Shown here: piece after piece, positions 11,501 through 32,709 of the stretch
How the letters are laid out: each line of letters begins with the position of its first letter
Numbering within the stretch: position 1 is the first letter of the stretch
Source of the DNA: Pseudomonadota bacterium
Lineage (GTDB): Bacteria > Myxococcota_A > UBA796 > GCA-2862545
Length of the DNA: 48,364 nucleotides
Direction of reading: 5' to 3'
NCBI GenBank assembly: GCA_005797785.1
Contig: SYKL01000097.1
Coordinates: 1 to 48,364, forward strand
Position numbers and translations under genes: made by a program
Notes under the pieces: model-generated
Databases searched by the model: none
Told to the model about the DNA's origin: nothing
The model's input: only the letters and a program-made list of their open reading frames with translations

Positions 11501-11676
11501 CCTTGGACGATCGGTGGCGCAAACAGTCGTTCGGGGTCGTCGCCGCTGCTGGTCCAGTTTTGCAACAAACGGTCCGCCAGCAGTCCCGGCGGAATACGGA
11601 AGGCGTCGAGCAAATAAGACGCGTGTTTTTTGCGAAGTTCGGTGCATGCCGCTAAGGCGTCGAATTGGTAGTTCAT
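5593..11676 (-). CDS. very large DEAD/DEAH-box helicase with C-terminal DUF1998/MrfA-type Zn-binding domain (DruE-like, Druantia-type)
   Basis: Motif I AGTGSGKTEAF (11281-11310). Motif II DEAH (10822-10833). Motif III TSAT. Motif IV-like LTFSDSRHG. Motif V STTMEMGVDLG. Motif VI YWQRAGRAGRR. Zn motif CRRCGN..CSVCHH at about 7620-7690, then CQVCGF. Start placed at ATG 11676, which overlaps the upstream stop (ATGA). The 103-codon extension in the ORF track overlaps the upstream gene. Confidence 0.88.
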   Translation of the reverse strand: MNYQFDALAACTELRKKHASYLLDAFRIPPGLLADRLLQNWTSSGDDPERLFAPPIVQGAWPYKPARDAANLEAVGEPLRSSESRPLHPKTVALMQAAGFTRALYEHQVAAVSAAATGNTVILSAGTGSGKTEAFLIPLLDRLFWDEENGLDNLAEPGIRAIIIYPLNALVNNQVDRVIRLLRGQQRLTFAYYTGRLKENYTAARSALIAQGRQPEPSQIIDRVTLRGLSQDAGRPNGPPHILITNFSMLEYMLIRPIDRTIFNDEYLFFKNTPRLKVMVLDEAHVYAGSQAAEIHMLLRRTADRFKTSLSRVQGFATSATLGAENGPALKTLARSMFAKSDDQVTAIVGTPYLPELPLPATNPPLDPTAFEIPAALRTLDLGPDGEPQGLVVDPPMADELRTILQACGLLSPEQCVQLASEGQPAKILAHAVRSTPRLVHFRRWLFDEERQGRLKSLDEIAAWLFGTQSIGEEERICADRILRLCSLARMDASEHPFLAMRMHAILRTPAGMWVDARPNGESTEAWPWGRVSSRLPAEDDEDLLEVLTCSECGEGYLRCWTKTDGEFGESTLFRNTEAPGYRQKWVPLTAPHAEQEWQAQLPERWGARHVQVIPVGGGNKPNSISRCTHCGEESADLKPLTIRPNAVVGPVIDAIYPFLGAHPAAAQQPLPGDGRRVLTFSDSRHGTASLAAEVEYTHDVGLNRQLLWQIIRDNPGISGEDLVAQMYSHPKFRERADFANAPDENTRVELARVSVFREFARLPSPSNITLETLGLVQVVYPNLPSVPPAYEGILSSDEWHCLLATTLDHARRQGAVQSLTINAQELQGLLRHNYYGKRLIFSPGDAPELRGEPSLVPTNLERNPVVNFARRVIGVGDMHDGDAIALLRAVWGALLQVANGPGLPDRKCVRGGQGGIQVYPWALQFTAPATPAFISPDSRALASRSLRNIPTEFTDESPLRPLTTSEVEYWRKRHAVRRVTDDEPLGLWSVEHTAQIDVDALEQDENAFRNGKRNLISSSTTMEMGVDLGGLTFVLMTNVPPAPSNYWQRAGRAGRRADGSSLVLTLAPAKPHDQRVFSDLRAFLRRPIRPPEVRLDAAPLVRRHVHAWLLSCFFEQVVTRAPRGNPMYAFGDITSLLTPVVAGQLQQGAPVDPGESLLEVFEKWCDTPSPDLLAALRKLVDGTVLASHPGDAVLRGAAVSLRESVHTARIDLDCLAGQIANEQALGQGGQRTAYLNALQLQQDRIMREALIRYLARTGFLPRFGFPVDIIRLDTGDEELRMERPLDAALSEYTPGAEVVAKKRIHRIGGLIRNWLANDPGLATRKTYLHCRRCGNIDVSDADRDQCSVCHHPAENAQAFYVRARATAQQLQRDGGEIDLADQPTPLRHFLQPTGFRVVSGESPRRVREKADAARMPPARMTLSGAAFDDLDEVSPDLTVGVSQEATLLIRSEGLVDKNQRAGYGFAICQVCGFSVAEPNWGDEVPPTFQNHRHLIRGTPCQMGARFWRHMTLGTSVLTDAFRLSLTQDSAFPADSAEDLALTFAVVLQQAAAEILQVDSRTLQPLVSTLNTENGTTKECVILDRTCSGVLLGLRNEWRPLLQRAIEYLQSPNHGSLILFETQQIHQRLRPKALLQHLREKNLHAFIAGAPNLGILNDGRLELRNPRPIVLDWLSAPGDIVLLGSCVAEDGFEPQGILRALHSRALLQRGESRLLLGRLPNTDTDEALLLSKLATLARDGVKIRIGQLPSYPWGVVRRAVDGYTALGSVNTENQPWTEPAFGSGWQRSGAFSTIRTDGVNAELMWEAYDNSWSQAAEVAQEVWAPPPTETTKWISVPQGKTTPEHIRLSKVLERHLGPLHALGTVTRLSYRDRFFATNIVSFLRLAEVLKQFRPAPGAAVDINSHLPRAEHYSQADAQQLLNDRTPPSDLSKKEAEALLSWTKQQAGASWDIKMTMLDTSKKQNGKWAQLPHARRLDITFATGGTYASMHLLFDHGLQGVRRTHGTTWMDWSFVTEEEHITLRLVRR

Positions 11677-14600
11677 GCGCGATCCTGTACGGCGTGGCGG
11701 TTGATCCAAAAGGCGGAAAGTGTAGGAAATCGTTTCATCAGGTGGTTGATCTGTCGGTACTGTTGGGGAAGGAGCGTGAGAGCCCCTTTGCGCCAGTAGT
11801 GGAGCGTCTTCATGGCGCCTGCAACCTCCACCTCGATCCGAAACAGGTGTTGAGGTATGGGGGGGTCGTGACGCAAACCCAGCTCCTGGAAGGCAGCCTG
11901 TTGGTCCGCTTGGGTCGGCTGAACCGATCGCGGAGGGCCGGATTGCCATTCTGTGGTTTCCACCTCGGTCAATGCGCGGTACCATAGGCTTCGTCTGTTG
12001 CCTTGAAGTCCTACGACGTACAAAGCATCGATTTCAGTGCGGGGCAAATCAACCACGTGGTACTCAGGTGGCGGTTGTTCGTTGCGCATCTGCGCCATCA
12101 TGGATTGGAATCCACCCTTCTGGCGGATGAACAAGATCCGACTTCGCTGCTCGGCGGTTGCGATTTGCTCTAGTTCCCGGTACCTCAACCACCACCACCG
12201 AGGACCGTTTTTGTCTCGGTTCAGCCAGGCTAGGCGTTGCTCGTCTTCAACTGCGCCTTCCAAATGCAGACGAAATCTGAGCGCGTTCAGTGCGCCTGCG
12301 GTTTCGGCGCTGTCACGCATTCGCCGAAAGGGGTTTGCGTCTTTTGGCCAGACGTCGCCATCTTCCACCATCCGGTCGAGGAGTCCGCGGAACAAGTCGA
12401 TATCGTCCAAGATGTCGTCATGGGGTATTGGTGCATCACGGAGGGTGGGAACGGGTGTCAAACCCGTGAGCGGAACGTTCGGTCGCCGATTTTCGACAAG
12501 GCGCGCATAGTATGGCCCATTTTGAGGCAACCTGGCCTCGAACCACGCGTCGGCCAAGGGGCGGACATCGAGAAGTTGGGCGACCTCCCAAGGGCGCGAC
12601 ATGGAGATGACCTTCATTTGCACGATCCCGGGGGCGCCTCGTCGTCGAATTCGCAGTATGTCTCCGTCGAGCTCGTATTCTGGAGGAGTCCGTGTTTCAT
12701 CGATGAACGGACCCAGCGTCTGCGACGCGTTGGGCCATGAGATCTCGATGGACAATTCCAGTTCCCGCGAATTCGTCGCAAAGAGGTTTGAAAAGGGTAC
12801 AAAGATAGACCCGTTTCTTCGGATGGCGGCGCGGATCTCCCGTTCTCCACACTTTGCGCTGATCGCACTCGACGGCGGCCCGTACACGCGGATCCCGCCC
12901 GCGCCGCGTAGGAGTTTCATGTCCATTGGTGAGTCAGGGGTTGGGCCGGCCAGTTCGACTTCGTCTGAGTTGGTCTGAAGTCTTGCAATGGATGGACATG
13001 CAAACAAGCGCCATGTGCCAACTAAGTTTGGGTGGTGCTCGATCTCGACATCCACGGTTTGAAACCCAACCACATCGGTCGGCAGTTGGATTTCGTTATG
13101 TGCGGTCCTGTGCTCGTGGCGAAAGCGTACAGATCCTTGGCCGCTCGCCGTCAATGTGGTTCCACCGGCATGGGAGCGGTGCGAGAGAGCGACGAACTGC
13201 GGTGGCAATAGAACAAACCGCGCCGATCCGCGCTTTTGATCGCTCGTCAAGTCGATTCGGTATATCCCGGGGATAGAAGGTGGTTCGAGCACCAACCGAC
13301 CGCCTCGCAGGTGGGTCTGGGGGATGTCGATTTTGAAATCGCCGGGACACACGAGAGTGCCCCAGACCTGGTCTGCTCCGAAGACCGATATGAAGGGTAA
13401 CCGGTGGTAAACACGACAGCCTCCCAACGAGAGGCCTTGTATTCGATGAATGTGCTCATCCAACGCGATTCGGAGCTTCTGCTCTGGTGGGGCTAGGCAA
13501 AGACCGTCACCAATCTCCACCGACGCGCCCGGCATCGGCCCCATCCAAGCACCGAGCTTCCCCTGAAGGCGGGAAAAACCGGTGGGAGGTGCGATCTCAA
13601 CCCCCGGTTCGGCGACGAGAACGACGGTCCGATGGGGGGCAGGTGCCTTCACCACGGTGAGTGTTGTTGCGTCAAAGAGCGCAAACCCCGTTCCTGGGAA
13701 GGGGTGTTCGGTATCGATTTCTACCCGCTCCACGCCCGCTCGAGCGATCGCCACGAGCGTCGCTGGAGTTCGATCCACCGGTAGCAAGGCGGCCGAGTCC
13801 AGATCGCGCACCAAAACGTCATCCTTCAGGACGTAGATGGCGTGGTGGGTTCCGCCGTGTACCCCCACCTTCACCCGATCTGCGCCGGGTGGGAATAAGG
13901 AAGCGGGAAGTTGTTCTGGGGCGCGGAGGGCGAGGCACATTCTTGCGAAGTCCCAGCACCAAGGAAGGTCGAACCCAGTGGGTTCGCCGCTCACCTCGCG
14001 GCCCGGACGGCAAAGGATGGCGTCGATCAGCTTCCGTTGGAGTTCGGTATTTTCAATGTCGAACGCGTCGTGAAGACCACGCCTCCTGATTTCGTGCAGC
14101 GTCTCCTCAGCTGTCGCGCGCGCCGCGCCTTCTTGAAGAGCCCACCGGCGCGTCAATGCGATGTGCTGCAGGTGTTTCGCCACGGCTTGTCGAGTCTCGG
14201 CTTCGGACAGCGAGCGATAACGTCCCTCGGTTGGTAAGAGGTCGGCGATGTCGCGATATTCTGACCGCTCCAGGAACGACCAGCCTCCTAATTCTGTGGC
14301 CTTTTCAGCGAGTTCGACGACCAGTGAGTCCGTCGCCCCCGAGTGCAGAAACATGGTTTCCTGAAATAGCCGGCCCTGGCCACCTTGAAGTAACGAGATG
14401 TTCCACCACCATTTGATGTTTCGGTCGATGGCGTCGCGGACAGTGGTTTGTGCAAGGCTGGTACGGATATCAAAGCTTCCCGGCAAGCCGCAGTCTCGAC
14501 CGAGCCATCGGTGGATCTCGTCGTAGGTCCATGTTGAGTCGGCGCCGACCTCTTTGAAGGCGAGCACTCCGGCAAGGAAAAAGGCTGCCCCCCACGCGCC

Positions 14601-15002
14601 CTTGTCCTCGGTTCCGTTTGAAACTCCCCGTAGCACTTCGTGGCGAAGCAGGTTCTTCTGTTCCTCGTTGAGCGCTACACGGCCGAGCAGGTGGCCGCGC
14701 AAACACTGAGTGCGGACGTGCTGCAAGAGATCGAGGACGGAGTTTCCTGCAGGCGGGCTTTCGCTGGGGGTGGACGTTGCGACGCTGGAGCCCTCGTGAA
14801 GACTGAGCGTTGCGGCGCTCGAACTCGCACCGGACTCGTAGGGAGCGTGGTCAGGTTCAGGGGCGTTTTGGATGAGGTCGATGATGGCCTGCTCAAGGGT
14901 TCGCCGTCCGCGAATCTGATGGAGTTTTTCCAGGGTTGTTGCTGAAAGGAGCAAACTCAAAGGCGCTGATTCGCCTGCCAGCTTATGCCCGGGTTGTGTC
15001 AT
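11673..15002 (-). CDS. large protein of unknown function (1109 aa), in the DruH-like position upstream of the DruE-like helicase; possible N-terminal ribbon-helix-helix
   Basis: ATG 15002 with AGGAAC upstream. Long uninterrupted ORF with normal composition and no motif I recognise. The N-terminus LSLLLSATTLEKLHQIRGRRTLEQAIIDLIQ has an RHH-like pattern. Its stop overlaps the helicase start. Confidence 0.7.
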   Translation of the reverse strand: MTQPGHKLAGESAPLSLLLSATTLEKLHQIRGRRTLEQAIIDLIQNAPEPDHAPYESGASSSAATLSLHEGSSVATSTPSESPPAGNSVLDLLQHVRTQCLRGHLLGRVALNEEQKNLLRHEVLRGVSNGTEDKGAWGAAFFLAGVLAFKEVGADSTWTYDEIHRWLGRDCGLPGSFDIRTSLAQTTVRDAIDRNIKWWWNISLLQGGQGRLFQETMFLHSGATDSLVVELAEKATELGGWSFLERSEYRDIADLLPTEGRYRSLSEAETRQAVAKHLQHIALTRRWALQEGAARATAEETLHEIRRRGLHDAFDIENTELQRKLIDAILCRPGREVSGEPTGFDLPWCWDFARMCLALRAPEQLPASLFPPGADRVKVGVHGGTHHAIYVLKDDVLVRDLDSAALLPVDRTPATLVAIARAGVERVEIDTEHPFPGTGFALFDATTLTVVKAPAPHRTVVLVAEPGVEIAPPTGFSRLQGKLGAWMGPMPGASVEIGDGLCLAPPEQKLRIALDEHIHRIQGLSLGGCRVYHRLPFISVFGADQVWGTLVCPGDFKIDIPQTHLRGGRLVLEPPSIPGIYRIDLTSDQKRGSARFVLLPPQFVALSHRSHAGGTTLTASGQGSVRFRHEHRTAHNEIQLPTDVVGFQTVDVEIEHHPNLVGTWRLFACPSIARLQTNSDEVELAGPTPDSPMDMKLLRGAGGIRVYGPPSSAISAKCGEREIRAAIRRNGSIFVPFSNLFATNSRELELSIEISWPNASQTLGPFIDETRTPPEYELDGDILRIRRRGAPGIVQMKVISMSRPWEVAQLLDVRPLADAWFEARLPQNGPYYARLVENRRPNVPLTGLTPVPTLRDAPIPHDDILDDIDLFRGLLDRMVEDGDVWPKDANPFRRMRDSAETAGALNALRFRLHLEGAVEDEQRLAWLNRDKNGPRWWWLRYRELEQIATAEQRSRILFIRQKGGFQSMMAQMRNEQPPPEYHVVDLPRTEIDALYVVGLQGNRRSLWYRALTEVETTEWQSGPPRSVQPTQADQQAAFQELGLRHDPPIPQHLFRIEVEVAGAMKTLHYWRKGALTLLPQQYRQINHLMKRFPTLSAFWINRHAVQDRA

Positions 15003-15245: not shown

Positions 15246-16019
15246 TCAGCACCCCAACCACACCCTCCAAAACTCCCCTCCATCCCTCCACCTTCGCATA
15301 GGGTCCACCTGCAGCGCCCCCACCATCGCCCGCTGCCAGGCGATCCGAAGGTCCGACACCCAATGTCTCGGATCGGTGAGTTCCCCCGCTTGCTTCCTCC
15401 GTACTTGGACAGGATCCTTCCCGTCGAACGGGCGCCTTCCGCACACCAGCTCGTACAGGAGAACTCCCACCGAAAACACATCCTCCCGCGGATCCACCGC
15501 TTCAAATGCCAACCGTTCGGGCGCTAAGTATCCCGGAGTGCCGCGGGTCAGCCGCGCCCGCCCGTCGGCTCCGATCGGCTTGGCCGAACTGAAATTCGCG
15601 AGCTTGGCGACCGTGCCTTGGAACACCAGCAGGCTCTGCGGGCGCAGGTTTCGGTGCACCCAACCCTGCTCGTGCAAGTACGCCACGCCCGCCAACAGGC
15701 CACCGGCAAGCGCTGCAATGTCGCGGCTGGGATCTCCCAGAACGTCCGCGAGACTACACATTTCTCCACCCTCCAGGATGAGCCCGCTGCGCCCTTCGAC
15801 ATCCACAACATCCGTCACCGCCTCGATGTGGGGATGGCGAAATTGCGCTTGAACTTTCCCTTCTTGAACGAGCGCGGCCCGAGCGGCTTTGGACGCCGAT
15901 GCGGCCAGTTTGAGTCGGTGCGCCGTACCCAACTGCACGTGGCGGCAAGGGACAACTGCCGCGTCCAAGTCACCCTCAACCGCATACCGATGATCATCGG
16001 TGTAGCAGTAAATTGGCAT
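15246..16019 (-). CDS. Hanks-type Ser/Thr protein kinase-like protein, predicted pseudokinase
   Basis: HRNLRPQSLL stands in for HRDLKPxN (Asn codon at 15648-15650). ANFSS stands in for DFG (15594-15596). GTPGYLAPE and DVFSVGVLLYELVCGRRPF are conserved. No Gly-rich loop. Start chosen at ATG 16019, because the longer ORF to 16166 would cover the divergent promoter. Confidence 0.7.
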   Translation of the reverse strand: MPIYCYTDDHRYAVEGDLDAAVVPCRHVQLGTAHRLKLAASASKAARAALVQEGKVQAQFRHPHIEAVTDVVDVEGRSGLILEGGEMCSLADVLGDPSRDIAALAGGLLAGVAYLHEQGWVHRNLRPQSLLVFQGTVAKLANFSSAKPIGADGRARLTRGTPGYLAPERLAFEAVDPREDVFSVGVLLYELVCGRRPFDGKDPVQVRRKQAGELTDPRHWVSDLRIAWQRAMVGALQVDPMRRWRDGGEFWRVWLGC

Positions 16020-16063
16020 GGCACCCCCTGCTTCCCTTGTGAGACGCGCGCTTCTCAGCCCGC

Positions 16064-16099
16064 CGGACAGTCGGTGTTCATTTCCGGAAGGACTGTCCG
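16064..16099. promoter_or_regulatory. 9-bp inverted repeat CGGACAGTC-N18-GACTGTCCG in the divergent intergenic region
   Basis: Lies between the pseudokinase start (16019, minus) and the start of the secreted protein (16152, plus). The inner part contains the palindrome TTCCGGAA (16082-16089). Confidence 0.3.
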
Positions 16100-16151
16100 C
16101 CCGCAGCCCCTGCTGGCGTCTCCTTACGGTACCCTCGATCTGGGAGTGATC

Positions 16152-16871
16152 ATGCAAACCATCCATCGTGTGGGAACAGGATCGAGCTCAGTCCGACGAG
16201 CGTTCCTTGGAATTGGCCTCATCGTGGCGATGGTCGCAGCCACCTTGGACAACGCACGGGCCGAACCCGCCCCGCCCGAGTGTGCGGACTTCGCTGCGGT
16301 GGAGCGCCCCGCGATGCTCGGCAAACTGAGCGACGCCGAGGTCCAATGCTTGGAATGGAGGTACGGTCATTTTGACCTCCCCACACACCGCGACAAAGCA
16401 TCCCGAATCTTGATGGCCAACGCCTACGGCAAGGGCGACATGCCCGAGTGGAAACGCCTCACGATGCGGCATATCGACGAAGTGGACGATTCGGATCCAA
16501 ACCTAAGTTTCAAACTGGCGCAGGTGTTTGCGAGGGAGGAGGAGCATGCTCCCACCGAGGTGATTCGTTGGTCCACGCTTTCGTTGCTGCACCGCGGCGC
16601 TTGGGATCCGGACGACTACACGTCGCGCGTGCCACAATTGCATGCGATGCGGGTGAAGAGTGCAAAGCAGATTTGGGAACAAGCAACGGCGGCGCACAAG
16701 AAAACTCCCACCCCAACGACCGAAGCGGCCGAACAGAGTTCCGCCGCCAGCGTGAGGGAGTTCAGCCGTGAGTGGGTATTGCATTGCAAACGAGCCCATA
16801 GTGATGCAAAGGAACCGCTGGCGATCTGCCGTTCGGCCGGAGGAGGCGCAGATTATTGCAATGGTGTATAG
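16152..16871 (+). CDS. secreted hypothetical protein (signal peptide, helical)
   Basis: ATG 16152 is in frame with ORF 15618-16871. The N-terminus RRAFLGIGLIVAMVAATLDNARA is signal-like. The upstream part of the ORF is antisense to the kinase gene. Confidence 0.55.
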   Translation: MQTIHRVGTGSSSVRRAFLGIGLIVAMVAATLDNARAEPAPPECADFAAVERPAMLGKLSDAEVQCLEWRYGHFDLPTHRDKASRILMANAYGKGDMPEWKRLTMRHIDEVDDSDPNLSFKLAQVFAREEEHAPTEVIRWSTLSLLHRGAWDPDDYTSRVPQLHAMRVKSAKQIWEQATAAHKKTPTPTTEAAEQSSAASVREFSREWVLHCKRAHSDAKEPLAICRSAGGGADYCNGV

Positions 16872-16903
16872 GGGATCGATACCTTGTTCGTAGGGAAGCG
16901 TCG

Positions 16904-23126: not shown

Positions 23127-23486
23127 CTAGCGCTCGATCAAGTCAATCAGCGCCGCAACATCCGTCACGTAGCCGGCCAACTCCGCCTCAGACGGTGCAA
23201 ACTCCAAACCGCGATGATGAATGGCTCGGCTCAGGGCGGACCAGATCCAGCCGATTCGGGTTGCCAACGGCGGGTCGGAAAGGAAATAGGGGAGACATAT
23301 CAACTGCGAACGCCAGGAGGAGTTCGCCAGGCCGGTTTGGCCCTTGCGCCGCCAGTAGTTGGTTATGGCGCCTTCCAGCGCCTGTCGGAGCAACAACGTT
23401 GCGGCGCGGGCCCAAGGCAACCCACGGACACCACCGTTTCCGTTGATTAGGCGCTGGGCTTGCTCCAGCAGCATACGCGGCGTCAC
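23127..23486 (-). CDS. small alpha-helical protein (119 aa), possibly HEPN/DUF4145-like; coupled to the ABC ATPase gene
   Basis: GTG 23486 overlaps the upstream stop (GTGA) and has AAGGAG 8 nt upstream. LLRQALEGAITNYW...LSRAIHHRG...VTDVAALIDLIE parallels the C-terminal domain of the ATPase. Confidence 0.55.
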   Translation of the reverse strand: MTPRMLLEQAQRLINGNGGVRGLPWARAATLLLRQALEGAITNYWRRKGQTGLANSSWRSQLICLPYFLSDPPLATRIGWIWSALSRAIHHRGLEFAPSEAELAGYVTDVAALIDLIER

Positions 23487-25936
23487 GTTCGGAACTCCTT
23501 CCGGAAGAGTATCAGCAGCTTGTGCGTCTGTTCGATCACGTGATGTGGATTGACTTGGATTTCTTCGTGGGATCCGCGGTTGACCAACTTGAAGGTATCG
23601 GCGGCTTCCGATCCCAGTCGCTTGTTCAAGGTGGGGTACACGTCCCCGCCTTTTCGGGCGTCTCCGCTGAACACCAAAGCGGCCAGTTCTACGAGCGACT
23701 TTGCACCGCGGAGTGCCTCCTCCACGTCTTCGTGCCTGCTCCCTTCGCTTAGACGACTTGAGCGATACGCCATCGTCAATTGGGCCTCCAGGGCGGAACG
23801 ACAGAGCCCAGGTACCACACGCGAGACGACAGGTTTGCCTACCTCTTCGCTTGCATTGGCCAGCGCACGGGCGTCCTCAATGTAGCCGGTGACCGGCTCA
23901 AATTGCGGCCGAACGTCTACCAGCGATTTTCCTTTGCGATTGGCTTCTAAGATGGTGGCGGGGATTTTTAGGCCACGAACCGCCTCGATCAACCGGGTGT
24001 CGTGGGTGAACACGATCACTTGGTGCGTTTTTGCGGTGGCCTGTAGAACTTGAGCCAGGCCGTCGACTTTGTAGGGATCCATGGCCTGCACAGGGTCGTC
24101 GATCACCATAAATCGGAAGGGGCTATCGGTGTGCGTCATCCGAGGAATAAAGAGACTTAACGCCAATGCGTTGATTTCTCCCTGGCTCATCACCGCCAAC
24201 GCTCCGCCGCCTTCTGTGCCGTCGACGTTCACCGCTAAATCCACCCTGCGACGGTTGCCGGAGCCTTCCAGGGTCACGCTTGCCAGGTTGACATTACTTT
24301 CTCGGCGCAGCATCGCCCAGATGGATTGAGACCGTGCGGCGATCGGTTGAAATCGCTCGTGTCGAATGCCCTCCTCGGCCCCCTTCAGCCACGTTTCCGC
24401 TTCCCTAAGTCGTTTCAAACACTCGGAACGTTGGCGAGCTTCCTTCGCTTTTGCACACCACGGGGCCAACAATTCTGCCACTGGGCGCCATCGATTCTCG
24501 CTCTCATCGATCATTCCTTCAAGGTTTGTTTTGAAGGTCGCGAACGCCGCTAGCAGCTCCCCTGACCGCTCAGAATACTGGAGGATGGTTGTGGGTTCTT
24601 TGGCCTCACATCCCGCGGCGAGCTCAGACCAAAGCCGGTGGAGTTCAGCTGCTCCGGGTACCACGGATGTCCGCAGCAGTTCTGAGGGCCGCCCCAGGGT
24701 ATTTCGGACGTCTCGTATCGCAGTTTGAAGAGCCTGCTCTGCCTGCTTTGCGACAGCGGTCGCCGTGTGAAGATCGGCGACCCTTTGTCCAGCGGTGGCG
24801 GCCCAGGCCTGGTCCAACTGGCCGGTCGCACAAACAGGGCAGCTCGAGTCTCCATGTTCTTTGTGCCATCCCAGTGCTTTTTCCAGGAGTTCGGCTGTGG
24901 ATTTCTGGAGCGTTTCTTGCCGACCTACTTGATCGATCGTTGTCTGGAGTGCGGAACGCAGCGCGGCTGTCCGATTTTCGAACTCTTTTTCGGCGGGCAA
25001 TTGGAGTTGTTGTAGGCGTCCGAGGTTGATGTTGTCGTTGTTTCGAATGTCGCCGTGGAGGACCGTGAGCACCTCGTCGAGATCCCACTTTTTTTGAAGT
25101 GCCGCGAAACACCGAACGGCTCGGGGATCTTCCATGGGCGCCAATTTGGCGAGGATGGGCTCGAGGGATGTCTTTGCGTCCTTGAGTAGCTTTTCGCGTG
25201 ACAAACGCGCCTTAGCCAAGGCATCCAACGCTCCTGACACCTCCTCCAAGCCGAGGACCGACCGTAGGGAGTCGTAGAATTTTGTTGGTCCTCCCAGTAT
25301 AAGTTGTCCGAGATCGGAGTATGCTAACATCGGTCGGTACGCGGCCAGGGCGTCCTTCCAGCCGAGCTGCTCGAGTCCGCCCAGGCTTCGCCCGCCACGG
25401 GACACCTGCGTTGTACCTCCGGCGACGTCCACATCGCCGGTTGGCCACTTACGGACGATTTGGACGGTATCGCTTCCCTCCACGGCAAATGCAGCCTTGA
25501 TCACACAGGAGCTCGAATCATGGATGTTGCGCCAACTCTGCCGCCAATCGACCGTGCGCCCGCTCAAACGACCTGCGTCGCCTGTCAGAACCACTTCCAG
25601 GGCGTCCGCCAAACTTGATTTTCCCGACCCATTGCGACCCGTAATGATGGTTAGTCCCGGTCCAGGGGGCAGGCTGATGGATACTTCCTTTCCGATGCCC
25701 CGAAACCCAGAAACAGAGAGTCCTGTGAGCCAAGTTCGAACGGGATGTGGCCGTTGCTGTGCGGGGGTCGTTGTTGGGCTGTGACCCGATGACGTGCTGT
25801 CCAGCGTGAGAGCGAGCTGGTTTTCTCCCTCAAACGCCGCTTCGACAAGCTCTGCTACGGGGCCGTCGACGCTTTGTGAGACCATCAATTCATAGATCGC
25901 CCAGAATAAGGCGGATTTTTCGGTATCGGTGGTCAT
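23483..25936 (-). CDS. Rad50/SMC-like ABC ATPase with coiled-coil insert, CxxC zinc-hook-like motif and an extra C-terminal helical domain
   Basis: Walker A GRNGSGKSS. Coiled-coil region with CPVC (24830-24841). Signature-like MSQGE. Walker B/D-loop FMVIDDPVQAMD. FTHD His-switch. GGGAG lies 5 nt upstream of ATG 25936. Confidence 0.85.
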   Translation of the reverse strand: MTTDTEKSALFWAIYELMVSQSVDGPVAELVEAAFEGENQLALTLDSTSSGHSPTTTPAQQRPHPVRTWLTGLSVSGFRGIGKEVSISLPPGPGLTIITGRNGSGKSSLADALEVVLTGDAGRLSGRTVDWRQSWRNIHDSSSCVIKAAFAVEGSDTVQIVRKWPTGDVDVAGGTTQVSRGGRSLGGLEQLGWKDALAAYRPMLAYSDLGQLILGGPTKFYDSLRSVLGLEEVSGALDALAKARLSREKLLKDAKTSLEPILAKLAPMEDPRAVRCFAALQKKWDLDEVLTVLHGDIRNNDNINLGRLQQLQLPAEKEFENRTAALRSALQTTIDQVGRQETLQKSTAELLEKALGWHKEHGDSSCPVCATGQLDQAWAATAGQRVADLHTATAVAKQAEQALQTAIRDVRNTLGRPSELLRTSVVPGAAELHRLWSELAAGCEAKEPTTILQYSERSGELLAAFATFKTNLEGMIDESENRWRPVAELLAPWCAKAKEARQRSECLKRLREAETWLKGAEEGIRHERFQPIAARSQSIWAMLRRESNVNLASVTLEGSGNRRRVDLAVNVDGTEGGGALAVMSQGEINALALSLFIPRMTHTDSPFRFMVIDDPVQAMDPYKVDGLAQVLQATAKTHQVIVFTHDTRLIEAVRGLKIPATILEANRKGKSLVDVRPQFEPVTGYIEDARALANASEEVGKPVVSRVVPGLCRSALEAQLTMAYRSSRLSEGSRHEDVEEALRGAKSLVELAALVFSGDARKGGDVYPTLNKRLGSEAADTFKLVNRGSHEEIQVNPHHVIEQTHKLLILFRKEFRT

Positions 25937-25973
25937 GGGGGCTCCCAGGGCCTTGGCGAGTGCCGTCGGTGAT

Positions 25974-28337
25974 TTAGTTGGGGGAGAGCGAGGTTTCCAA
26001 TCGCTCGACGGGACCTTTCAGCGCATCGTGCAACCGCAAGATCGCGTCCACCGTTGGAGGGATCGCTTTCGACCAAGTGCCCCGGTCGCTCCAACCGCCA
26101 TACTCGAAGGAAACGGCAATTCGGGCGGTGTTTTTCTCGTTGAGGCGATGCCACTCCATAGGGCCGCCAAATACCGCTTCGATCGCAAGCCGTTCATGAA
26201 AAAGCTGGTCGAAAAAGGACTTGTTTCGGTCGCGGCTTCCGGTATTGATGTACAGTTCTGCGCGCGTCGAGTCCTGCAGCACGACGAGGTTGAAGGAGAC
26301 GCCGGTTCGACCGCCGCCAAACCCGATCCAGGTGTCCTTGCCTGGGCTCACTCGGGCGAGGAGCGAGGTGCGTGTTGCCGCATGCGTCAGCAGGTCCGTC
26401 CAAAAGGCGAAACACTCGACGTGTCGTGGGCCGTCGGGTTCGCGATCCGCGTCATCGTCGAGATCGGGTGCTGCGAAATTCAGCGGTTCGTGTTCCGGCG
26501 GTGCCATTTCGCCGAGCGAGAGGCGAGCGGGGTTCCACACCCATTCGGCCAGGCGAACGTACAAAACCTGCCGTTCCCGTTGCTCTTCTGTGCCGAAGTG
26601 CGCGTAGGGTTTGAACGACAGACCGCTGCGTTCGCGGAGGCGTGCAAACGACGGGTCGTTTACATAGGCAATCGGGTGCAAGCTTCTGGCGAGAAGGTTC
26701 TCGCCTTTTGCTAAGTAAGCCGGCAGTTTTTCTTCGTAGGGGGCGTCTCCCAGACTCTGATTGACCCCGCGCTGGAGGAGCAGCAAGCCACCGATTCGAT
26801 TCCGTTCTTCATCGAACTCGGAAGGATGGTGAAATAGGTTTGCATATCTGTCGTAGTGATTGGGCCAGATGTGCTCGATCTCAAACGGCCTTGATTGCCC
26901 CTCGCTCACCAAATCCTCAAAATGAGAGGGGATGCCGCATTCCGTGTCGACCCAATGGGTGAGGCGCGCGAGAATGTGGCGAACTTGTCGGTAGTTCTGG
27001 TTGTGCAACCGAAGGAGGGGACTCCGTGCAAAACGTTCCGGCTGGGCGTCGAGTTGTGAACGAAGGAAGCTGGAAAGGTCCTCGACGGACTTCCCTCGAA
27101 GGTCGCGGGCAAGGTTGAACAGCGTGTAGCGAATGGAGGAGTATGCAATCGTTCGGAAAGTCCACACACGGCGGGCGATCCAGATGTCGATAAAATCAGC
27201 AACTAATTTGATTTTACGGCGTATCGTCTCGGGTTTGTCGCTCGTGGCCAAAGGTGCGAGCAGTAGCTGGGTTTGTAGCGTAAAACCTCGCTCTTCGTTG
27301 TAGCGAATCGATTCCAGACCCGGGGTGAGGGTCGTGGCTGCCCGTCGAATCAATAGGGTCTGGCGGACAAAGAAGTCGAGGTCACGTGTGACGAATCGTA
27401 CGTAGTCGTCGGAAGTATTGAGCGAGAGGCGTTCCTTCTGGTCGCGAACCCAGCGGTGGAACTCGGTGCCGATTCGCTCATAGTCCTTATTTTCGGCGCC
27501 TTTTTTGCCTGGTCGGATCGACTCTGCGTACTGACCACGGAACCAATTCTTGAAGAAGTCGACGTCTTCCTCGACGCCCAGGGCCTTTAGGTCCTGGATG
27601 TGTTGCTTCCAGATGTCATTTACCCGACGCTGATCGTCTTCGTGCCGGATGTTGGCGAGAATGTAGCCTTTCAGCATCTCGGGCAAAGAGAGCGACAATC
27701 CGCGGTCGTTCATGGTTTCGAAGATCGTGTAGGCGTCCTCGTCGCTGTATGCCTCGATTTCGACAAAATGGACATTTTCGAGGAGCCAATCTACAAAATA
27801 CGGGAGCGCCCGGGTGTGGAGGTCTTCGGGAAAGTGATCCGCGATATTGTCGTATCGGAGCGTGATGTTCTGAACGGAGGAGGGGTGCCCCTCGGTGTCG
27901 AACCGCTCGCCCAGGAACAGTGCATCCATGACCGGAGTGCGCTCTGGAACGTCCAAATTGAAACTGCGGCGGCCGAATTTCTCGCTGAAAATGAGGTTCT
28001 TTACGGGAACATGATCGCTACGTTCGTTTTGGAGATGGTGAAGGTAGATCAGGAGGAGCGTCAGCGTGGTTAGGCGCTGTTGGCCGTCGACGACGAATCG
28101 TTGGCTTCGTTTGTGGCTCACCACCACGGAACCCAGAAAGTAGTGACCGTAGTTTTCGACGTCGGGGCGAGAGTGCCCTTCGTCGTAGAAGTCGAGAAAC
28201 TTGCCGGTGAGGTCGTCGATCAATTCGCGCACTTGCCGTTCCTGCCAGGCATATTCGCGTTGATAGAAATCGATGGTGTATTTGGCCCCGTCCAACAGCT
28301 CGCGGACGGTTCGGGCACGACCTTCGATGCTTTTCAT
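25974..28337 (-). CDS. GmrSD-family type IV restriction-like protein (DUF262 ParB-like NTPase + DUF1524 His-Me finger nuclease) with a C-terminal DUF4268-like domain
   Basis: YTIDFYQREYAWQ and VVDGQQRLTTL (DUF262). FEIEHIWPNHY...RIGGLLLLQRGVNQSLG (DUF1524). C-terminal TRAELYINTG...MEWHRLNEKNTARIAV. GGAG lies 6 nt upstream of ATG 28337. Confidence 0.88.
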   Translation of the reverse strand: MKSIEGRARTVRELLDGAKYTIDFYQREYAWQERQVRELIDDLTGKFLDFYDEGHSRPDVENYGHYFLGSVVVSHKRSQRFVVDGQQRLTTLTLLLIYLHHLQNERSDHVPVKNLIFSEKFGRRSFNLDVPERTPVMDALFLGERFDTEGHPSSVQNITLRYDNIADHFPEDLHTRALPYFVDWLLENVHFVEIEAYSDEDAYTIFETMNDRGLSLSLPEMLKGYILANIRHEDDQRRVNDIWKQHIQDLKALGVEEDVDFFKNWFRGQYAESIRPGKKGAENKDYERIGTEFHRWVRDQKERLSLNTSDDYVRFVTRDLDFFVRQTLLIRRAATTLTPGLESIRYNEERGFTLQTQLLLAPLATSDKPETIRRKIKLVADFIDIWIARRVWTFRTIAYSSIRYTLFNLARDLRGKSVEDLSSFLRSQLDAQPERFARSPLLRLHNQNYRQVRHILARLTHWVDTECGIPSHFEDLVSEGQSRPFEIEHIWPNHYDRYANLFHHPSEFDEERNRIGGLLLLQRGVNQSLGDAPYEEKLPAYLAKGENLLARSLHPIAYVNDPSFARLRERSGLSFKPYAHFGTEEQRERQVLYVRLAEWVWNPARLSLGEMAPPEHEPLNFAAPDLDDDADREPDGPRHVECFAFWTDLLTHAATRTSLLARVSPGKDTWIGFGGGRTGVSFNLVVLQDSTRAELYINTGSRDRNKSFFDQLFHERLAIEAVFGGPMEWHRLNEKNTARIAVSFEYGGWSDRGTWSKAIPPTVDAILRLHDALKGPVERLETSLSPN

Positions 28338-28506: not shown

Positions 28507-29412
28507 CTACTTCAACATCCTGCTGCACCACTCCGCCACCATCGCCCGAAAGTCCGCAGGCCCGCGTACCTCCCAATCCCCCTCCAACGCCATCAACCGC
28601 CGCAACAGCACCGGCCAAGTCACCTCCCGCAGCCGGTATTCTTTTGGGTGCTCAGTGGGCTCGGACCAAATCGGCGTTGGAAGCGGTCCGTCGACCCACA
28701 CAACGGCTTCGACCAACTGCATCGGCGCGTCAAACAGCACGTCCCTCCGGTATCCTTGGCTGGCAGCCGGCTCGAACGTCTGATCAGTCACCGTGGCGCT
28801 GGCGATCCGGTCGACCCGGAAATGACGGTGTTCGCCGTTGGGAAGAAACGCCCCCAGGTACCAACGGCCTTGATGCGAAACCACGGCGTTGGGATGGACT
28901 TCTCGCTTGGAGCGCTTGTCTTGGCTGGCGCTGTAATAGTCAAGTAACGTTACTTTACAATCCTGAACGGCCAAGGTGATCGCATCGAGGATTTCGGCGT
29001 TCACCGGGCGATCGTGTGCCCAAGCCAGGGTGCCTGTTCGTGCAGGGAGATCCGGCGACTGGCCTTGAAGAATGCACTTTTCGGCCGTATCGCATGCATC
29101 GGCCAAAGCTCCCTTCGATCCTTGGCGCAACGAGCGGAGGGCGCCGATGGCGACGGCGGCTTCTGTTGGCGAGAATGCCGTACGATCGGGAATGGCAGGA
29201 TGTACATCAAAAATGAGCCAGTCGCCGTCGAGGTCGACCTCCAACAGGTCTTCGGGCAGGAACGGCGGCGCGCCGGATACTACGAGTTCGGCGACCAAAG
29301 CGCCCAATTGGTCCTTGGGGATCCCCAAGATGTCGACGGCCTCATCCACCTTAAGTTCGCCCTGGTTTTTACGGGCCTGTGCCAACAATGCGAGCGTTCG
29401 ACCGAGGTTCAC
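28507..29412 (-). CDS. PafC-like WYL-domain transcriptional regulator
   Basis: GTG 29412 overlaps the upstream stop (GTGA), with GGAG 7 nt upstream. LVAELVVSGAPPFLPEDLLEVDLDGD is typical of the PafC N-terminal region. WYL core is HQGRWYLGAF. Confidence 0.75.
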   Translation of the reverse strand: MNLGRTLALLAQARKNQGELKVDEAVDILGIPKDQLGALVAELVVSGAPPFLPEDLLEVDLDGDWLIFDVHPAIPDRTAFSPTEAAVAIGALRSLRQGSKGALADACDTAEKCILQGQSPDLPARTGTLAWAHDRPVNAEILDAITLAVQDCKVTLLDYYSASQDKRSKREVHPNAVVSHQGRWYLGAFLPNGEHRHFRVDRIASATVTDQTFEPAASQGYRRDVLFDAPMQLVEAVVWVDGPLPTPIWSEPTEHPKEYRLREVTWPVLLRRLMALEGDWEVRGPADFRAMVAEWCSRMLK

Positions 29413-30374
29413 GTTCCCACTCCATGGCGGGCGGCGATCCGTTCGAACTTGCCCTTCCAAACGTTCGCCAAGGATTCCGGCCCGACGACCCGAACGCGCG
29501 GCATCCATTCGAGAATCAGCTGATCCACGCCGTGGGCGTGGGTTACCATCCTTCGGACGCGCGTTCCCTCGATGGTGGTGGCTCCACCGAGGTGTCGGGC
29601 CACCAATTCGACCCATTCGGGTTCACATTCGAGAATCAACTCTTCGGGAGGATGAAGCTTCCAATCCCACGGAAGGACAAAGCCAGAATGTCGGATATCG
29701 AAGCCTTCTGGGCGCTCAAAGTGGTTCATCCCGTCCGGCAGGCCGATAACTTTGAGCCCGTGGATCAGACCGATTTTGAAGGTGCGACGTTCGTTCTTTT
29801 CGTTGCATCGGCCGACGACGTACCAATGACCGCGGCGGGAAAACAAACCCCAGGGTTCTAGCGTGCGAGAACGCGCATCTCCGCCTTTGACCGGCCGATA
29901 CGAGAACGACACCCGCAACCTGCGCCAGATCGCCAAGGTCAGCTTTTCGACCAGTTCGACGACGGTTGGCGGATCACGCGTGATGTGATGAGTGACGATC
30001 GGACTCCGCTCTGAGCGGAGATCCATGAGAATTCGCTTGGCTTCCGGCGCCAACGCAAACCGGTCATCAACCGAGGCCAAACCGAGGGCTTCGCGGAGTA
30101 CGATCGCTGAAGCGGTATCGAGTTGGAGCGGCCGTGCACGGAGCGCCGACGCGTCCAAAGAGTAACCTTTCCCATCGTAATGGAGGATGACGCCGGCTTC
30201 GCGGAGGATCCGTTTGTCGCGTTCGAACGTGCGCCGCGCGGACTCTTCTGCGCCTAAGTAGGCCTCGATGGGGGCGAGTTCTGTGCGAATCGCGGAGAAT
30301 GGCACCGGTGCTCGGCGGGAGCGGAGCAGGGCGAGGAGCGCGATGTGGCGTTGGAGCGGGTACGACTTGGCCAT
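29409..30374 (-). CDS. PafB-like HTH + WYL-domain transcriptional regulator
   Basis: N-terminal wHTH LQRHIALLALLRSRRAPVPFSAIRTEL...FERDKRILREAGV. WYL core is RRGHWYVVGR. Start is ATG 30374 (no SD, possibly leaderless) or GTG 30410. Confidence 0.75.
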   Translation of the reverse strand: MAKSYPLQRHIALLALLRSRRAPVPFSAIRTELAPIEAYLGAEESARRTFERDKRILREAGVILHYDGKGYSLDASALRARPLQLDTASAIVLREALGLASVDDRFALAPEAKRILMDLRSERSPIVTHHITRDPPTVVELVEKLTLAIWRRLRVSFSYRPVKGGDARSRTLEPWGLFSRRGHWYVVGRCNEKNERRTFKIGLIHGLKVIGLPDGMNHFERPEGFDIRHSGFVLPWDWKLHPPEELILECEPEWVELVARHLGGATTIEGTRVRRMVTHAHGVDQLILEWMPRVRVVGPESLANVWKGKFERIAARHGVGT

Positions 30375-30822
30375 GAGGGCCGATGGTAGCAGAGGTTGGG
30401 GTAATGTCACACCCCTTGGTTGAACAAGCGAACTTCGCGCTCAGTCTTACCGATTCCAGAGGTTCATCATCTCCAATCCGCGTCGTAGGTCCGCCAACGC
30501 CTCGCAATTGCTCGGCGAGGAGGAGTCGAGCCCGAAGTTGGTCGGGAGTCAGCACTGCGTAGGAGGCCTCGACACCGGACATTCGTTGGGAGAACTCCTC
30601 CCTTACGGCACGAGCCCAGTCGAGCTCAAAGGCCGCGATGGCGGATTCGGTCACGCGCAGGGCAAGTTCCTGTTCATCGAACTCCTCAGGAGTTACCTTC
30701 AGACGCGGGGGATCGGACTGCCACAGGTGTATGAACGCTTCGAGTTCGGTGACGTGCCCGCGTCCCTTAAACCACGTCCAAAGCGTATTCCAAGATTCCG
30801 TCGGGGTAGGTTCGGTCGCCAT
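30067..30822 (-). CDS. hypothetical protein; only about the first 110-130 aa look genuine, and the rest overlaps the WYL gene out of frame
   Basis: ATG 30822 has GGAGG 6 nt upstream. EEFDEQELALRVTESAIAAFELDWARAVREEF is helical and protein-like. After about aa 125 the sequence becomes Pro/Arg-rich while overlapping 29409-30374. Confidence 0.35.
   Translation of the reverse strand: MATEPTPTESWNTLWTWFKGRGHVTELEAFIHLWQSDPPRLKVTPEEFDEQELALRVTESAIAAFELDWARAVREEFSQRMSGVEASYAVLTPDQLRARLLLAEQLRGVGGPTTRIGDDEPLESVRLSAKFACSTKGCDITPTSATIGPHGQVVPAPTPHRAPRPAPLPPSTGAILRDSHRTRPHRGLLRRRRVRAAHVRTRQTDPPRSRRHPPLRWERLLFGRVGAPCTAAPTRYRFSDRTPRSPRFGLG
30372..30415 (-). promoter_or_regulatory. candidate sigma70-type promoter of the WYL operon; its -35 is formed by the inverted island motif copy E (plus-strand TGTCACACCCC 30405-30415)
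   Basis: The minus strand reads GTGACA (30410-30405), a 16-nt spacer, then TACCAT (30388-30383), with 8 nt to ATG 30374. This is compatible with a leaderless transcript. GGGG...CCCC symmetry surrounds the motif. Confidence 0.35.
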
Positions 30823-31476: not shown

Positions 31477-32709
31477 TCAGGTGGACCCGGATCCGGCCTT
31501 CGTCATCGCCACCACGACTCCACCATCCGCCCGCCCAATGCCCTGTCCCGCCATCACCGTCTTCAAATGCCCACTTGTCACATGCGCGTACACCCGATCC
31601 AACATCTCCCCATCGGTCCAACCCCCCATCTCCTGCAGCGCCTTCCGGTCCACCCCGGCCATCGCCAGCCGGCTCGCCCACGCATGCCGAAGCAGGTGAG
31701 GGTGCACATGCGGCAGGCCGGCCCTCTTGGCCGCTTGGGTCACCCCCTTGGAGATCCAGCGCCGTGGCCCTTCACCGTCGTTGGCGCGCCCAGCTGGGAA
31801 CACCCACCCGCCCTTCGGTTGGCCTAGCTCCATCCAAAGGTCCCTTAGCGCCTCTTTTACCACCGGAGTCATCGGAATCGAACGTTCCGCGCCCTTACGT
31901 CGCCGCCCGCCCTTCACGAACCAGCTGATCGCCGGCTTATGCGTGACCCGGACCATTCCCTCCTCAAAATCGACGTCGCTCCATTCTCGAGTGAGGGCTT
32001 CGCCACATCGAAGGCCAAGATTCGCCATCAACAAAATGGCTAAGAAGGTGTACCGGTCCCGAGAACGATTGCCGTCTTCTGGCCGGGAAGCGGCGATCAA
32101 AGCCTCCACTTCTTCGGGCGGCAAGTACCGTACGTGTTTTGGGGCCGCCGCAACACGTTTGATCACCGGCAACGGACCTGCGAAGAAGTCATATTCAACG
32201 GCCCATTTCAGTGCCGAACGCAACACTCGCAGCTCAATGTTCACCGTCGTTGGCGACGCAGGCCGTCCTGTTCGCTCCGCAGCCGTCGTCAATCGATGGT
32301 GCCGATAACGGTCGACGACTTTTGAATTGATCGCATCGAGCCGGTGATGTCCGATCAGCTCCGCCAGCCATGAGGCCGCCAACTCTTCCTGCGCAATCGT
32401 CTTCGGTGCGTGGTCGATTTTGAACATCGGCAGATAGTGAGCCTCCAACAGCTCGCGCAACGGCAAAGCCTCTGTCGGAGGCGATCCTTCTGCCTTACCG
32501 GCGCCGCGGAAGTGCGACGCGTCCGGGTACTGCAAGAGAACTTGTGCTTCCTTCTTCTGTTTCGCTTTCTGGGCCTCCTTCTCCGGCACGAATCCCAGCG
32601 CCGCTGACTTCCGCTTTTGCGTTACCGGATCGACCCACCGCAGCGACAGGTAATCCTCCTGGCGACCCGTTTTGGGGTTTAACCGTCGAATTCGTTGGAT
32701 GTCCGCCAC
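31477..32709 (-). CDS. int: tyrosine site-specific recombinase (phage-type integrase)
   Basis: C-terminal catalytic region HLLRHAWASRLAMAGVDRKALQEMGGWTDGEMLDRVYAHV (H-x-x-R ... Y). LRCGEALTREWSDVDF box I. N-terminal arm-binding-like LSLRWVDPVTQKRKSAALG. GTG 32709 has GGGAGG 6 nt upstream. Confidence 0.9.
   Translation of the reverse strand: MADIQRIRRLNPKTGRQEDYLSLRWVDPVTQKRKSAALGFVPEKEAQKAKQKKEAQVLLQYPDASHFRGAGKAEGSPPTEALPLRELLEAHYLPMFKIDHAPKTIAQEELAASWLAELIGHHRLDAINSKVVDRYRHHRLTTAAERTGRPASPTTVNIELRVLRSALKWAVEYDFFAGPLPVIKRVAAAPKHVRYLPPEEVEALIAASRPEDGNRSRDRYTFLAILLMANLGLRCGEALTREWSDVDFEEGMVRVTHKPAISWFVKGGRRRKGAERSIPMTPVVKEALRDLWMELGQPKGGWVFPAGRANDGEGPRRWISKGVTQAAKRAGLPHVHPHLLRHAWASRLAMAGVDRKALQEMGGWTDGEMLDRVYAHVTSGHLKTVMAGQGIGRADGGVVVAMTKAGSGST

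Follow-up and report, generated by a model that had tools for sequence, protein, structure and literature searches.

A GmrSD-family restriction enzyme beside a RloC-like zinc-hook ATPase and its small HEPN-fold partner: probably two separable defence units on an integrase-borne island

We analysed a 48,364-nucleotide stretch of DNA, called here the window (positions 1 to 48,364 of contig SYKL01000097.1, assembly GCA_005797785.1), from a bacterium deposited as Pseudomonadota bacterium and placed by GTDB in Myxococcota_A. Three consecutive genes on its minus strand encode a GmrSD-family restriction enzyme, a Rad50/SMC-type ABC ATPase with a zinc hook that resembles the ribonuclease-bearing ATPase RloC, and a small helical protein of 119 amino acids (aa). 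A first-pass annotation, made from the letters of the sequence, had proposed that the three may act as one module in which DNA sensing by the ATPase is coupled to the GmrSD nuclease. We recovered its three open reading frames (ORFs) with the same limits on the minus strand (28337..25974, 25936..23483 and 23486..23127), and then compared the proteins and their gene neighbourhoods with those of their relatives. The features of the three genes are as follows.

25974..28337, minus strand: GmrSD-family type IV restriction enzyme, 787 aa (Pfam, PADLOC, motifs)
26016-26408, minus strand: DUF4268 domain of the GmrSD protein, aa 644-774 (Pfam)
23483..25936, minus strand: RloC-like Rad50/SMC-type ABC ATPase, 817 aa (Pfam, motifs)
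25613-25639, minus strand: Walker A of the ATPase (motif)
24830-24841, minus strand: CPVC zinc hook of the ATPase, in the predicted coiled-coil insert (motif)
24176-24187, minus strand: signature SQGE of the ATPase (motif)
24092-24112, minus strand: Walker B VIDDP of the ATPase (motif)
23486..23899, minus strand: C-terminal HEPN-like domain of the ATPase, about aa 680-817 (conservation, AF2, Foldseek)
23798-23800, 23786-23788 and 23567-23569, minus strand: C-terminal triad of the ATPase, R713, E717 and H790 respectively (conservation)
23127..23486, minus strand: 119-aa protein with a predicted HEPN fold, paralogue of the ATPase C-terminal domain by profile comparison (hhalign, AF2, Foldseek)

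The genes are arranged as in an operon. The stop codon of the GmrSD gene and the ATG of the ATPase gene are separated by 37 nucleotides (nt), with a Shine-Dalgarno-like GGGAG placed 5 nt 5' of the ATG, and no terminator-like hairpin was found on the minus strand in this gap. The ATPase stop codon and the GTG start of the 119-aa frame share the letters GTGA, and this start agrees with the N-termini of aligned homologues. Spacing, ribosome-binding sequence and overlap were all as the first-pass annotation had read them, and we concur that the combination of GmrSD, ATPase and small protein corresponds to no named system.

Domain make-up of the three proteins

The GmrSD gene is complete. Pfam models matched the 787-aa protein at 1.7e-31 (GmrSD_N), 1.9e-7 (GmrSD_C) and 4.7e-25 (DUF4268), and the protein carries DGQQR at aa 84 (DUF262) and EIEH at aa 486 (DUF1524 His-Me finger), the combination on one polypeptide that marks the GmrSD/HEC-06 group. 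HEC-06 models were the best match in PADLOC (3.9e-41), followed by Orf5 and SspE, while PDC-S11 matched the DUF4268 tail. The protein is like GmrSD, BrxU, SspE and HEC-06 in having DUF262 and DUF1524 intact, fusion to DUF4268 is an already known GmrSD architecture, and only its neighbour makes it unusual. Defence by a single gene is on record for the HEC-06 type, whose activity is lost when DGQQR or the His-Me finger is mutated (bioRxiv 10.1101/2024.01.29.577857). The window enzyme should therefore require no partner, as is also supported by ten close relatives without the ATPase pair (see below), and it is most likely a stand-alone, modification-dependent type IV restriction enzyme of this type with a DUF4268 tail. 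Next to two close relatives of the window GmrSD, a stand-alone DUF4268-like ORF lies directly 3' of the GmrSD gene (8332-8808 in locus L085 and 8389-8790 in locus L087), and DUF4268 may for this reason also act as a separate subunit.

The 817-aa protein proved to be a Rad50/SMC-like ABC ATPase of the zinc-hook type, as first annotated. In Pfam, SMC_N matched aa 70-653, AAA_23 and AAA_21 also matched, and the two halves of the ABC head were split by an insert of about 400 aa. The motifs comprise Walker A (GRNGSGKS, aa 100), CPVC (aa 366-369), the signature SQGE (aa 584), Walker B (VIDDP, aa 611) and the H-loop His (H645). Conservation was followed in two independent sets, an alignment of 42 homologues and 79 homologues from genomes. 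Walker A, SQGE, VIDDP, D620 and H645 were invariant in the alignment (42/42) and retained in 78-79 of the 79 genomic sequences, and both cysteines of CPVC were present in every member of the two sets (42/42 and 79/79). The split head, together with matches to the arm of SMC1A, points to a coiled coil in the insert. A profile of the 42 homologues matched the heads of Rad50 and SMC proteins in the PDB. The best PADLOC match was to LmuB, a generic model (4.8e-24; aa 222-652 on model positions 175-591 of 611), with mad3, PDC-S06, AriA, GajA and PtuA also matching through common ABC motifs, and an exact-sequence look-up of the window ATPase returned no record. Ahead of the Walker A lobe, aa 1-68 make up an N-terminal extension, about 65 aa long and conserved, that no family matched, in which A33 and L45 are invariant and L10, R17, L30 and A34 are conserved at 90% or more.

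The last 160 aa of the ATPase contain three invariant residues, R713, E717 and H790, found in 42/42 aligned sequences and in 78, 77 and 77, respectively, of the 79 genomic homologues. A corresponding triad is seen in the small protein, where R34 and E38 occur in 50/50 sequences and H90 in 49/50, alongside near-invariant W25, R27, W82 and P98. An R-x3-E…H pattern is common to both, with a Glu-to-His spacing of 72 residues in the ATPase (E717-H790) and 51 in the small protein (R34-x3-E38-x51-H90). When the small family was aligned with the ATPase C-terminal domain by hhalign, an E value of 3.3e-5 was obtained over 114 columns, and R-x3-E and His of the one family fell on those of the other, whereas four controls (the N-terminal extension, both coiled-coil arms and the reversed C-terminal alignment) gave E 0.06-0.5. 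In ten or more ATPases, a hidden Markov model of the small protein also matched this same C-terminal site (lowest E 6.9e-6). These comparisons therefore identify the 119-aa protein as a paralogue of the ATPase C-terminal domain.

A homology search with the single 119-aa sequence retrieved only itself, and its homologues were reached via a profile of homologues taken from the related loci. Sequence and profile searches of Pfam, NCBIfam, PADLOC and the PDB with the small protein and the ATPase C-terminus yielded nothing meaningful. AlphaFold2 (AF2) models of the 119-aa protein and of the ATPase C-terminal domain were confident, at pLDDT 92.9 and 91.5. Foldseek searches of the PDB with the small protein returned mostly HEPN proteins among the top matches, including the HepT toxins 7bxo and 6m6w at template modelling (TM) scores of 0.70-0.72, and further 2q00, 1ufb, 1wol, 1o3u, 4nqf and sacsin, the TM scores of HEPN matches ranging over 0.65-0.72. 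With the ATPase C-terminal domain the HEPN set was again the best-ranked and most frequent among recognisable matches, weakly so (E 0.35, probability 0.94). The four-helix up-and-down HEPN fold is thus predicted for the small protein and, more weakly, for the ATPase C-terminus. One protein of 485 aa (P0387) carries the small-protein domain at residues 358-470 and may be a fusion; in Nigerium massiliense (L014) the ATPase ORF is longer, at 1129 aa, with no small gene detected, and this may be a variant.

Ribonucleases (RNases) of the HEPN superfamily are generally dimeric, with a composite active site. Because both paralogues also keep the triad, we favour a heterodimeric site to which the ATPase would contribute its C-terminal domain in cis and the small protein would contribute in trans. 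In a variant of this model, the pair would behave like a toxin-antitoxin system, with nuclease activity confined to the HEPN domain of the ATPase and the small HEPN protein, itself non-catalytic, capping that domain as an inhibitor or decoy until activation. Translational coupling through a 4-nt overlap at most loci would give stoichiometric co-expression as in toxin-antitoxin pairs, a bound partner usually restrains HEPN toxins, and HepT-MntA (HEPN-MNT) supplied the best structural matches of the 119-aa protein. However, the residues R34, E38 and H90 in the small protein vary as little as the triad of the ATPase, which is unexpected for a purely structural inhibitor, and we consider this variant doubtful. 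The pair also differs from HepT-MntA in having no MNT nucleotidyltransferase, in not conserving the Rx4-6H motif and in that the partner of the small protein is its own paralogue fused to an ATPase.

Conservation of the ATPase-small protein pair and its link to GmrSD

Relatives of the ATPase were sought in one genome per species (185,579 species genomes), which gave at least 562 loci, and the best 80 were retained. Synteny was counted from tblastn and jackhmmer searches of the raw DNA and not from gene calls, because a crude ORF caller had missed some genes of the window. A homologue of the 119-aa protein was encoded directly 3' of the ATPase gene in 72 of the 75 loci with enough downstream DNA (tblastn), usually with an overlap of 4 nt. 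The ATPase and the small protein are therefore a tight, conserved, translationally coupled two-gene module. The 80 loci span Actinomycetota, Chloroflexota, Dormibacterota, Myxococcota and Acidobacteriota, and the small-protein family counts 1,327 clusters at 50% identity, nearly all of 100-165 aa. On the Streptomyces plasmid pM92 the pair is annotated independently by RefSeq, as 'AAA family ATPase' and 'hypothetical protein'. The phage collection contained no homologue, and we found no paper in the literature describing the ATPase and small protein together.

The pair is patchily distributed, with copies on plasmids and islands, and genes for Mrr, GmrSD, PLD-helicase, WYL and Fic proteins are frequent neighbours. 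Immediately upstream we observed Mrr (L028, L036), a PLD-ResIII-DUF3427 helicase-nuclease, SF1 helicases, WYL and Fic genes, and also housekeeping genes (peptidase S9, an MFS transporter, a NuoL-like subunit, an amidohydrolase and a histidine kinase); the adjoining gene is often on the opposite strand. Two further arrangements were seen. A fusion of a DEDDh RNase_T exonuclease with TerB (428-589 aa) lies directly upstream of the pair in L041, L045 and L070, and an RNase_T exonuclease-DEAD helicase fusion of 1083 aa occupies this slot in L048 (3985-7236); such fusions occur in Geodermatophilaceae and Pseudonocardia, in the slot held by GmrSD in L058. In L005 and L048 (e.g. L048:10017-17189) the pair is followed directly by four genes, for a NurA-like protein (weak match), a 630-aa protein of unknown kind, a Metallophos protein that is Mre11-like and a Rad50/SbcC-like ATPase of 996 aa, so that in these two genomes the Rad50-like HEPN module stands beside a bona fide end-processing operon.

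The link to GmrSD was of a different order. An iterative search for DUF262 in all six-frame ORFs of the 80 loci found such a gene in five, adjoining the pair in four and lying 4.5 kb away in L066. It is directly upstream of the pair in L058 and directly downstream of the small gene in L044, L050 and L063 (Pseudonocardia), and the extra C-terminal domain of the pair-linked GmrSD proteins varies, being DUF4268 in the window, DUF7662 in L058 and DUF5655 in L044. The closest relatives of each GmrSD-linked ATPase are without GmrSD; the nearest to the window ATPase are those of L001-L004 and L081, and the nearest to that of L058 are those of L041 and L045, where the RNase_T/TerB gene takes the place of GmrSD. 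This indicates that GmrSD and the pair came together independently, at least three times, and that the juxtaposition is not inherited beyond the genus level. In L081, where the nearest ATPase homologue lies, the upstream gene encodes a 791-aa protein that has no relation to GmrSD in spite of its similar length. In the reciprocal direction we took ten full-length GmrSD-DUF4268 relatives (61-66% identity) on metagenome contigs, eight of them with 1.6-6 kb of downstream DNA, and found a homologue of the ATPase or of the small protein near none of the ten. Type IV enzymes as a whole adjoin the pair in 7/81 loci, counting GmrSD in the window, L058, L044, L050 and L063, and Mrr in L028 and L036.

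The first-pass annotation had staked its proposal beforehand on synteny of the three genes in other genomes. One part of it stood, the ATPase and small-protein genes being strongly syntenic, whereas the trio was largely not, and the three genes cannot be upheld as a conserved system. The close spacing on one strand, the Shine-Dalgarno-like sequence and the missing terminator might nevertheless suggest a system of three true components, with GmrSD as the effector, licensed or recruited by an SMC/Rad50-like ATPase that, together with the small protein, senses DNA. SMC_N has been reported to be enriched near GmrSD genes (PMC4619093), DUF262/DUF1524 genes abut the pair in L058, L044, L050 and L063, and Mrr is directly upstream in L028 and L036. 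These contacts are set against an adjacent DUF262 gene in only 4/80 loci, at a position that flips from upstream to downstream, against GmrSD enzymes with different C-terminal domains and ATPases whose closest relatives lack them, and against the ten close GmrSD relatives without the pair; in many loci the neighbours of the pair are on the opposite strand or have housekeeping roles. The coupling to GmrSD as effector is also not needed, because the ATPase appears to have an effector of its own, which the first-pass annotation had overlooked, in the C-terminal HEPN-like domain, with its conserved putative nuclease residues, and in the 119-aa paralogue of that domain. We hold a three-component system to be unlikely.

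It is more probable, as part of the interpretation developed below, that GmrSD is a neighbour and not an obligate subunit, at most a source of DNA ends for the pair or an enzyme guarded by it as EcoprrI is guarded by PrrC. The link to GmrSD is the less important point; it appears to reflect a defence-island neighbourhood, possibly with some occasional synergy of function. By analogy with PrrC and RloC, a looser 'restriction-linked' relation between the pair and type IV enzymes is possible.

The surrounding island

Outside the three genes we annotated the following features of the window.

48118-48364, minus strand: bacterial RNase P class A RNA, 3' part, cut by the window end (Rfam, 160 bits)
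33232-33304, minus strand: tRNA-Arg(CCT), next to the integrase
32709..31477, minus strand: tyrosine integrase (Pfam)
30410..29409, minus strand: first WYL-domain regulator (Pfam WYL)
29616..28507, minus strand: second WYL-domain regulator, with a PafC-type HTH (Pfam WYL, HTH_PafC)
22059-22964, minus strand: 301-aa protein, whose gene separates the small HEPN gene from that of the helicase (weak BRCT-like C-terminus, DUF533/TerB-like matches)
18522-22004, minus strand: 1160-aa TM0106 RecB-like nuclease/RNase_H-like/SF1 helicase (TIGR03491 2.1e-70, PADLOC MkoA 2.6e-46)
16856-17770, plus strand: microbial-type PARG
16166..15246: Ser/Thr kinase
15002..11673: 1109-aa ORF, no family
11985..5593: 2130-aa DEAD/Helicase_C giant

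The integrase and the tRNA-Arg gene show that this is an integrated chromosomal island of the defence type, the window being chromosomal as judged from the RNase P RNA at its edge. No exact repeat of 14 nt or more of the tRNA-Arg region, as might mark the far end of the island, was present elsewhere in the window, and Rfam detected no RNA element in the region. The two WYL genes directly upstream of GmrSD (WYL 1.2e-18 and 5.9e-16; HTH_PafC 1.2e-9 in the second) are reminiscent of PafB/PafC. As the longest ORFs of the two share about 200 nt, the second gene probably starts further downstream than its ORF, and the regulators may control the genes that follow them. A WYL-WCX gene lies directly upstream of the pair in L062.

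On the other side of the three genes, the 301-aa protein had no homologue in the 80 related loci. Homologues of the 1160-aa protein were found in L007, at full length (38% identity) and 2.6 kb downstream of the pair, and in L071, where the homologue is partial. The cargo at 5593-17770 may provide further defence functions or functions related to NAD or ADP-ribose.

Relation to RloC and to other known systems

The closest parallel to the window ATPase is RloC (Davidov & Kaufmann 2008, Klaiman 2012), in which a coiled coil bearing a CXXC zinc hook interrupts the ABC head and an anticodon-nuclease domain with the conserved residues Arg-X3-Glu-X36-52-His makes up the C-terminus; in the G. kaustophilus protein (GkaRloC) the key residues are K44, C291, D572 and R692/E696/H737 (PMC2610378, PMC3458546). 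The nuclease is silenced by the zinc hook and switched on by a DNA-dependent ATPase, best with linear DNA, and cuts the wobble nucleotide out of tRNA upon activation by DNA ends and ATP (PMC3458546). The anticodon-nuclease domain of RloC was later placed in the HEPN superfamily (PMC3710099). The window ATPase has the ABC motifs and a CxxC zinc hook within an insert predicted to be a coiled coil; like RloC it has about 800 aa, and its key residues follow one another as in RloC (K106, C366-C369, D613 and R713/E717/H790). In pattern its C-terminal residues agree with the Arg-X3-Glu…His triad that experiments defined in RloC and PrrC. Orthologues of RloC have variable flanks, often with restriction enzymes or integrases, and their patchy occurrence in such settings is shared by the window pair. 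The two families differ in that RloC is treated as a single gene, whereas the window family has an obligate, translationally coupled small HEPN paralogue, and in that the window protein has the conserved N-terminal extension as an extra part; the Walker A lysine of GkaRloC lies about 60 residues closer to the N-terminus (K44 vs K106). On the best reading the window ATPase would work like RloC, but we refrain from placing it in the RloC family.

We consider it probable that the locus holds two separable defence units on an integrase-borne island, namely a stand-alone GmrSD enzyme and a RloC-like Rad50/zinc-hook ATPase-HEPN module with a HEPN partner in trans, the two being co-oriented and probably co-transcribed. 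In the mechanism that we propose by analogy with RloC, the ATPase dimer would be held silent by the conformation of its zinc hook and heads. Binding of DNA ends or damaged DNA arising from infection, with ATP turnover, would alter this conformation and free or assemble the HEPN RNase, most likely a heterodimer of the C-terminal HEPN domain and the small HEPN protein. The RNase would then cleave tRNA, as is probable, or another RNA, so that translation stops and the infection is aborted.

Several observations weigh against this interpretation. The likeness to RloC was drawn from published descriptions, and the Glu-to-His spacing of 72 in the ATPase lies outside the 36-52 of RloC. Against AAA_13, the Pfam family of PrrC and RloC, the window ATPase scored 29.2 bits where the cut-off is 36, and matched in the signature/Walker B region only. 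Among the 42 ATPase relatives, 37 matched AAA_13 weakly, at E<1e-3 (best 9.2e-10), and the C-terminal domain taken alone did not match. Foldseek assigned the ATPase C-terminus to HEPN weakly, at the E of 0.35 given above, and profiles of Pfam, PADLOC and the PDB tie neither this domain nor the small protein to PrrC/RloC or to any HEPN family. The canonical HEPN motif Rx4-6H is absent from the window copies, the small protein reading SRAIHHR at this position and the ATPase NRGSH, and is partly conserved in the family, with R87 in 48-67% and H92 in 60-95% of sequences. Finally, the 37 nt without a terminator between the GmrSD and ATPase genes, and the recurrence of type IV enzymes beside the pair (7/81), leave room for some functional coupling of the two units.

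PrrC provides a second point of comparison. Like the window ATPase, it is an ABC ATPase that ends in a domain with the R-x3-E…H pattern, in PrrC a nuclease, and its gene adjoins that of a restriction enzyme. The anticodon nuclease PrrC is embedded in and silenced by the type Ic restriction-modification (R-M) system EcoprrI, a precedent for an RNase as a 'second line' of defence (PMC3710099). However, PrrC is without a coiled coil or zinc hook and always tied to an R-M locus, whereas the window pair is linked to GmrSD or Mrr only occasionally (7/81) and to a type IV partner. Coupling of a zinc-hook coiled-coil ABC ATPase to a small partner is also seen in DndD-DndE and in the PbeABCD systems, in which a CxC ABC ATPase with an apical zinc hook on its coiled coil always accompanies a small protein, DndE (PMC10853773). 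There the hook is CxC and not CPVC, and DndE is a DNA binder of the double ribbon-helix-helix type, whereas the window partner is predicted to be all-helical and HEPN-like. The DndD model matched a C-terminal fragment of the window ATPase alone (E 0.012), and an identity with DndFGH, SspFGH or PbeABCD was rejected on these grounds.

A role of the pair in DNA repair or maintenance was also considered, with a Rad50/SbcC/RecN-like ATPase and a helical adaptor whose conserved Arg, Glu and His would serve binding and not catalysis. Sequence similarity of the ATPase is indeed strongest to Rad50/SMC heads, RefSeq tags a Streptomyces homologue with the GO term 'double-strand break repair', and the pair is directly upstream of the NurA-like/Mre11-like/Rad50-like operon in L005 and L048, but no Mre11/SbcD-type nuclease partner is conserved across the loci. 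The patchy occurrence (at least 562 matches among 185,579 species genomes), the location of copies on plasmids and on islands with an integrase, where restriction enzymes are often the neighbours, and the HEPN proteins as best-ranked recognisable matches of both small domains make a repair factor very unlikely.

Lamassu (LmuA/LmuB/LmuC; DdmABC) likewise combines an SMC-like ABC ATPase with a small subunit and variable effectors, and the ATPase could be read as LmuB, the small protein as LmuC and GmrSD as a new LmuA effector. This is the least plausible assignment and hardly credible, as the LmuB match (4.8e-24) is generic ABC/coiled-coil similarity, neither LmuA nor LmuC matched GmrSD (among the best 25 of its 37 matches) or the small protein, most loci have no effector or conserved third gene beside the pair, and the PDB profile search gave Rad50/SMC heads and not Lamassu chains. 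The window gene order is also unlike that of three-gene Lamassu loci (LmuA, LmuC, LmuB), and a zinc hook and a C-terminal HEPN-like domain are not known to be features of LmuB, whereas the window ATPase has the hook together with an effector fused in cis and its paralogue in trans. An identity with Lamassu, which is reported to sense DNA ends (PMC12663957), was thus rejected.

Returning to the interpretation as two separable units, we also see an outside chance of a tighter relation. The pair would then be a new, widespread system in which a Rad50-like zinc-hook sensor governs a heterodimeric HEPN RNase, with a minority of copies wired in cis to GmrSD, Mrr or PLD-helicase, such that DNA ends made by the restriction enzyme, or its inhibition by phage anti-restriction proteins, trigger the RNase. 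If true, this would be a two-layer defence of the PrrC-EcoprrI kind built around a modification-dependent enzyme.

GmrSD itself is ordinary. What is new here is an unnamed pair of the RloC kind with a separately encoded HEPN paralogue, which extends a system described in 2008. Pipelines for finding defence genes would call the ATPase an orphan 'LmuB-like' protein or 'AAA family ATPase' and miss the small gene. If the proposed mechanism is correct, the RloC principle, in which a Rad50-type sensor of DNA ends unleashes an RNase that kills translation, would reach a large, unnamed two-gene family. The separate HEPN paralogue, not described for RloC, would provide a naturally split two-HEPN site that is tractable for studying how an SMC-like motor gates a HEPN nuclease, and this arrangement, together with the size of the family, makes the pair a worthwhile experimental target.

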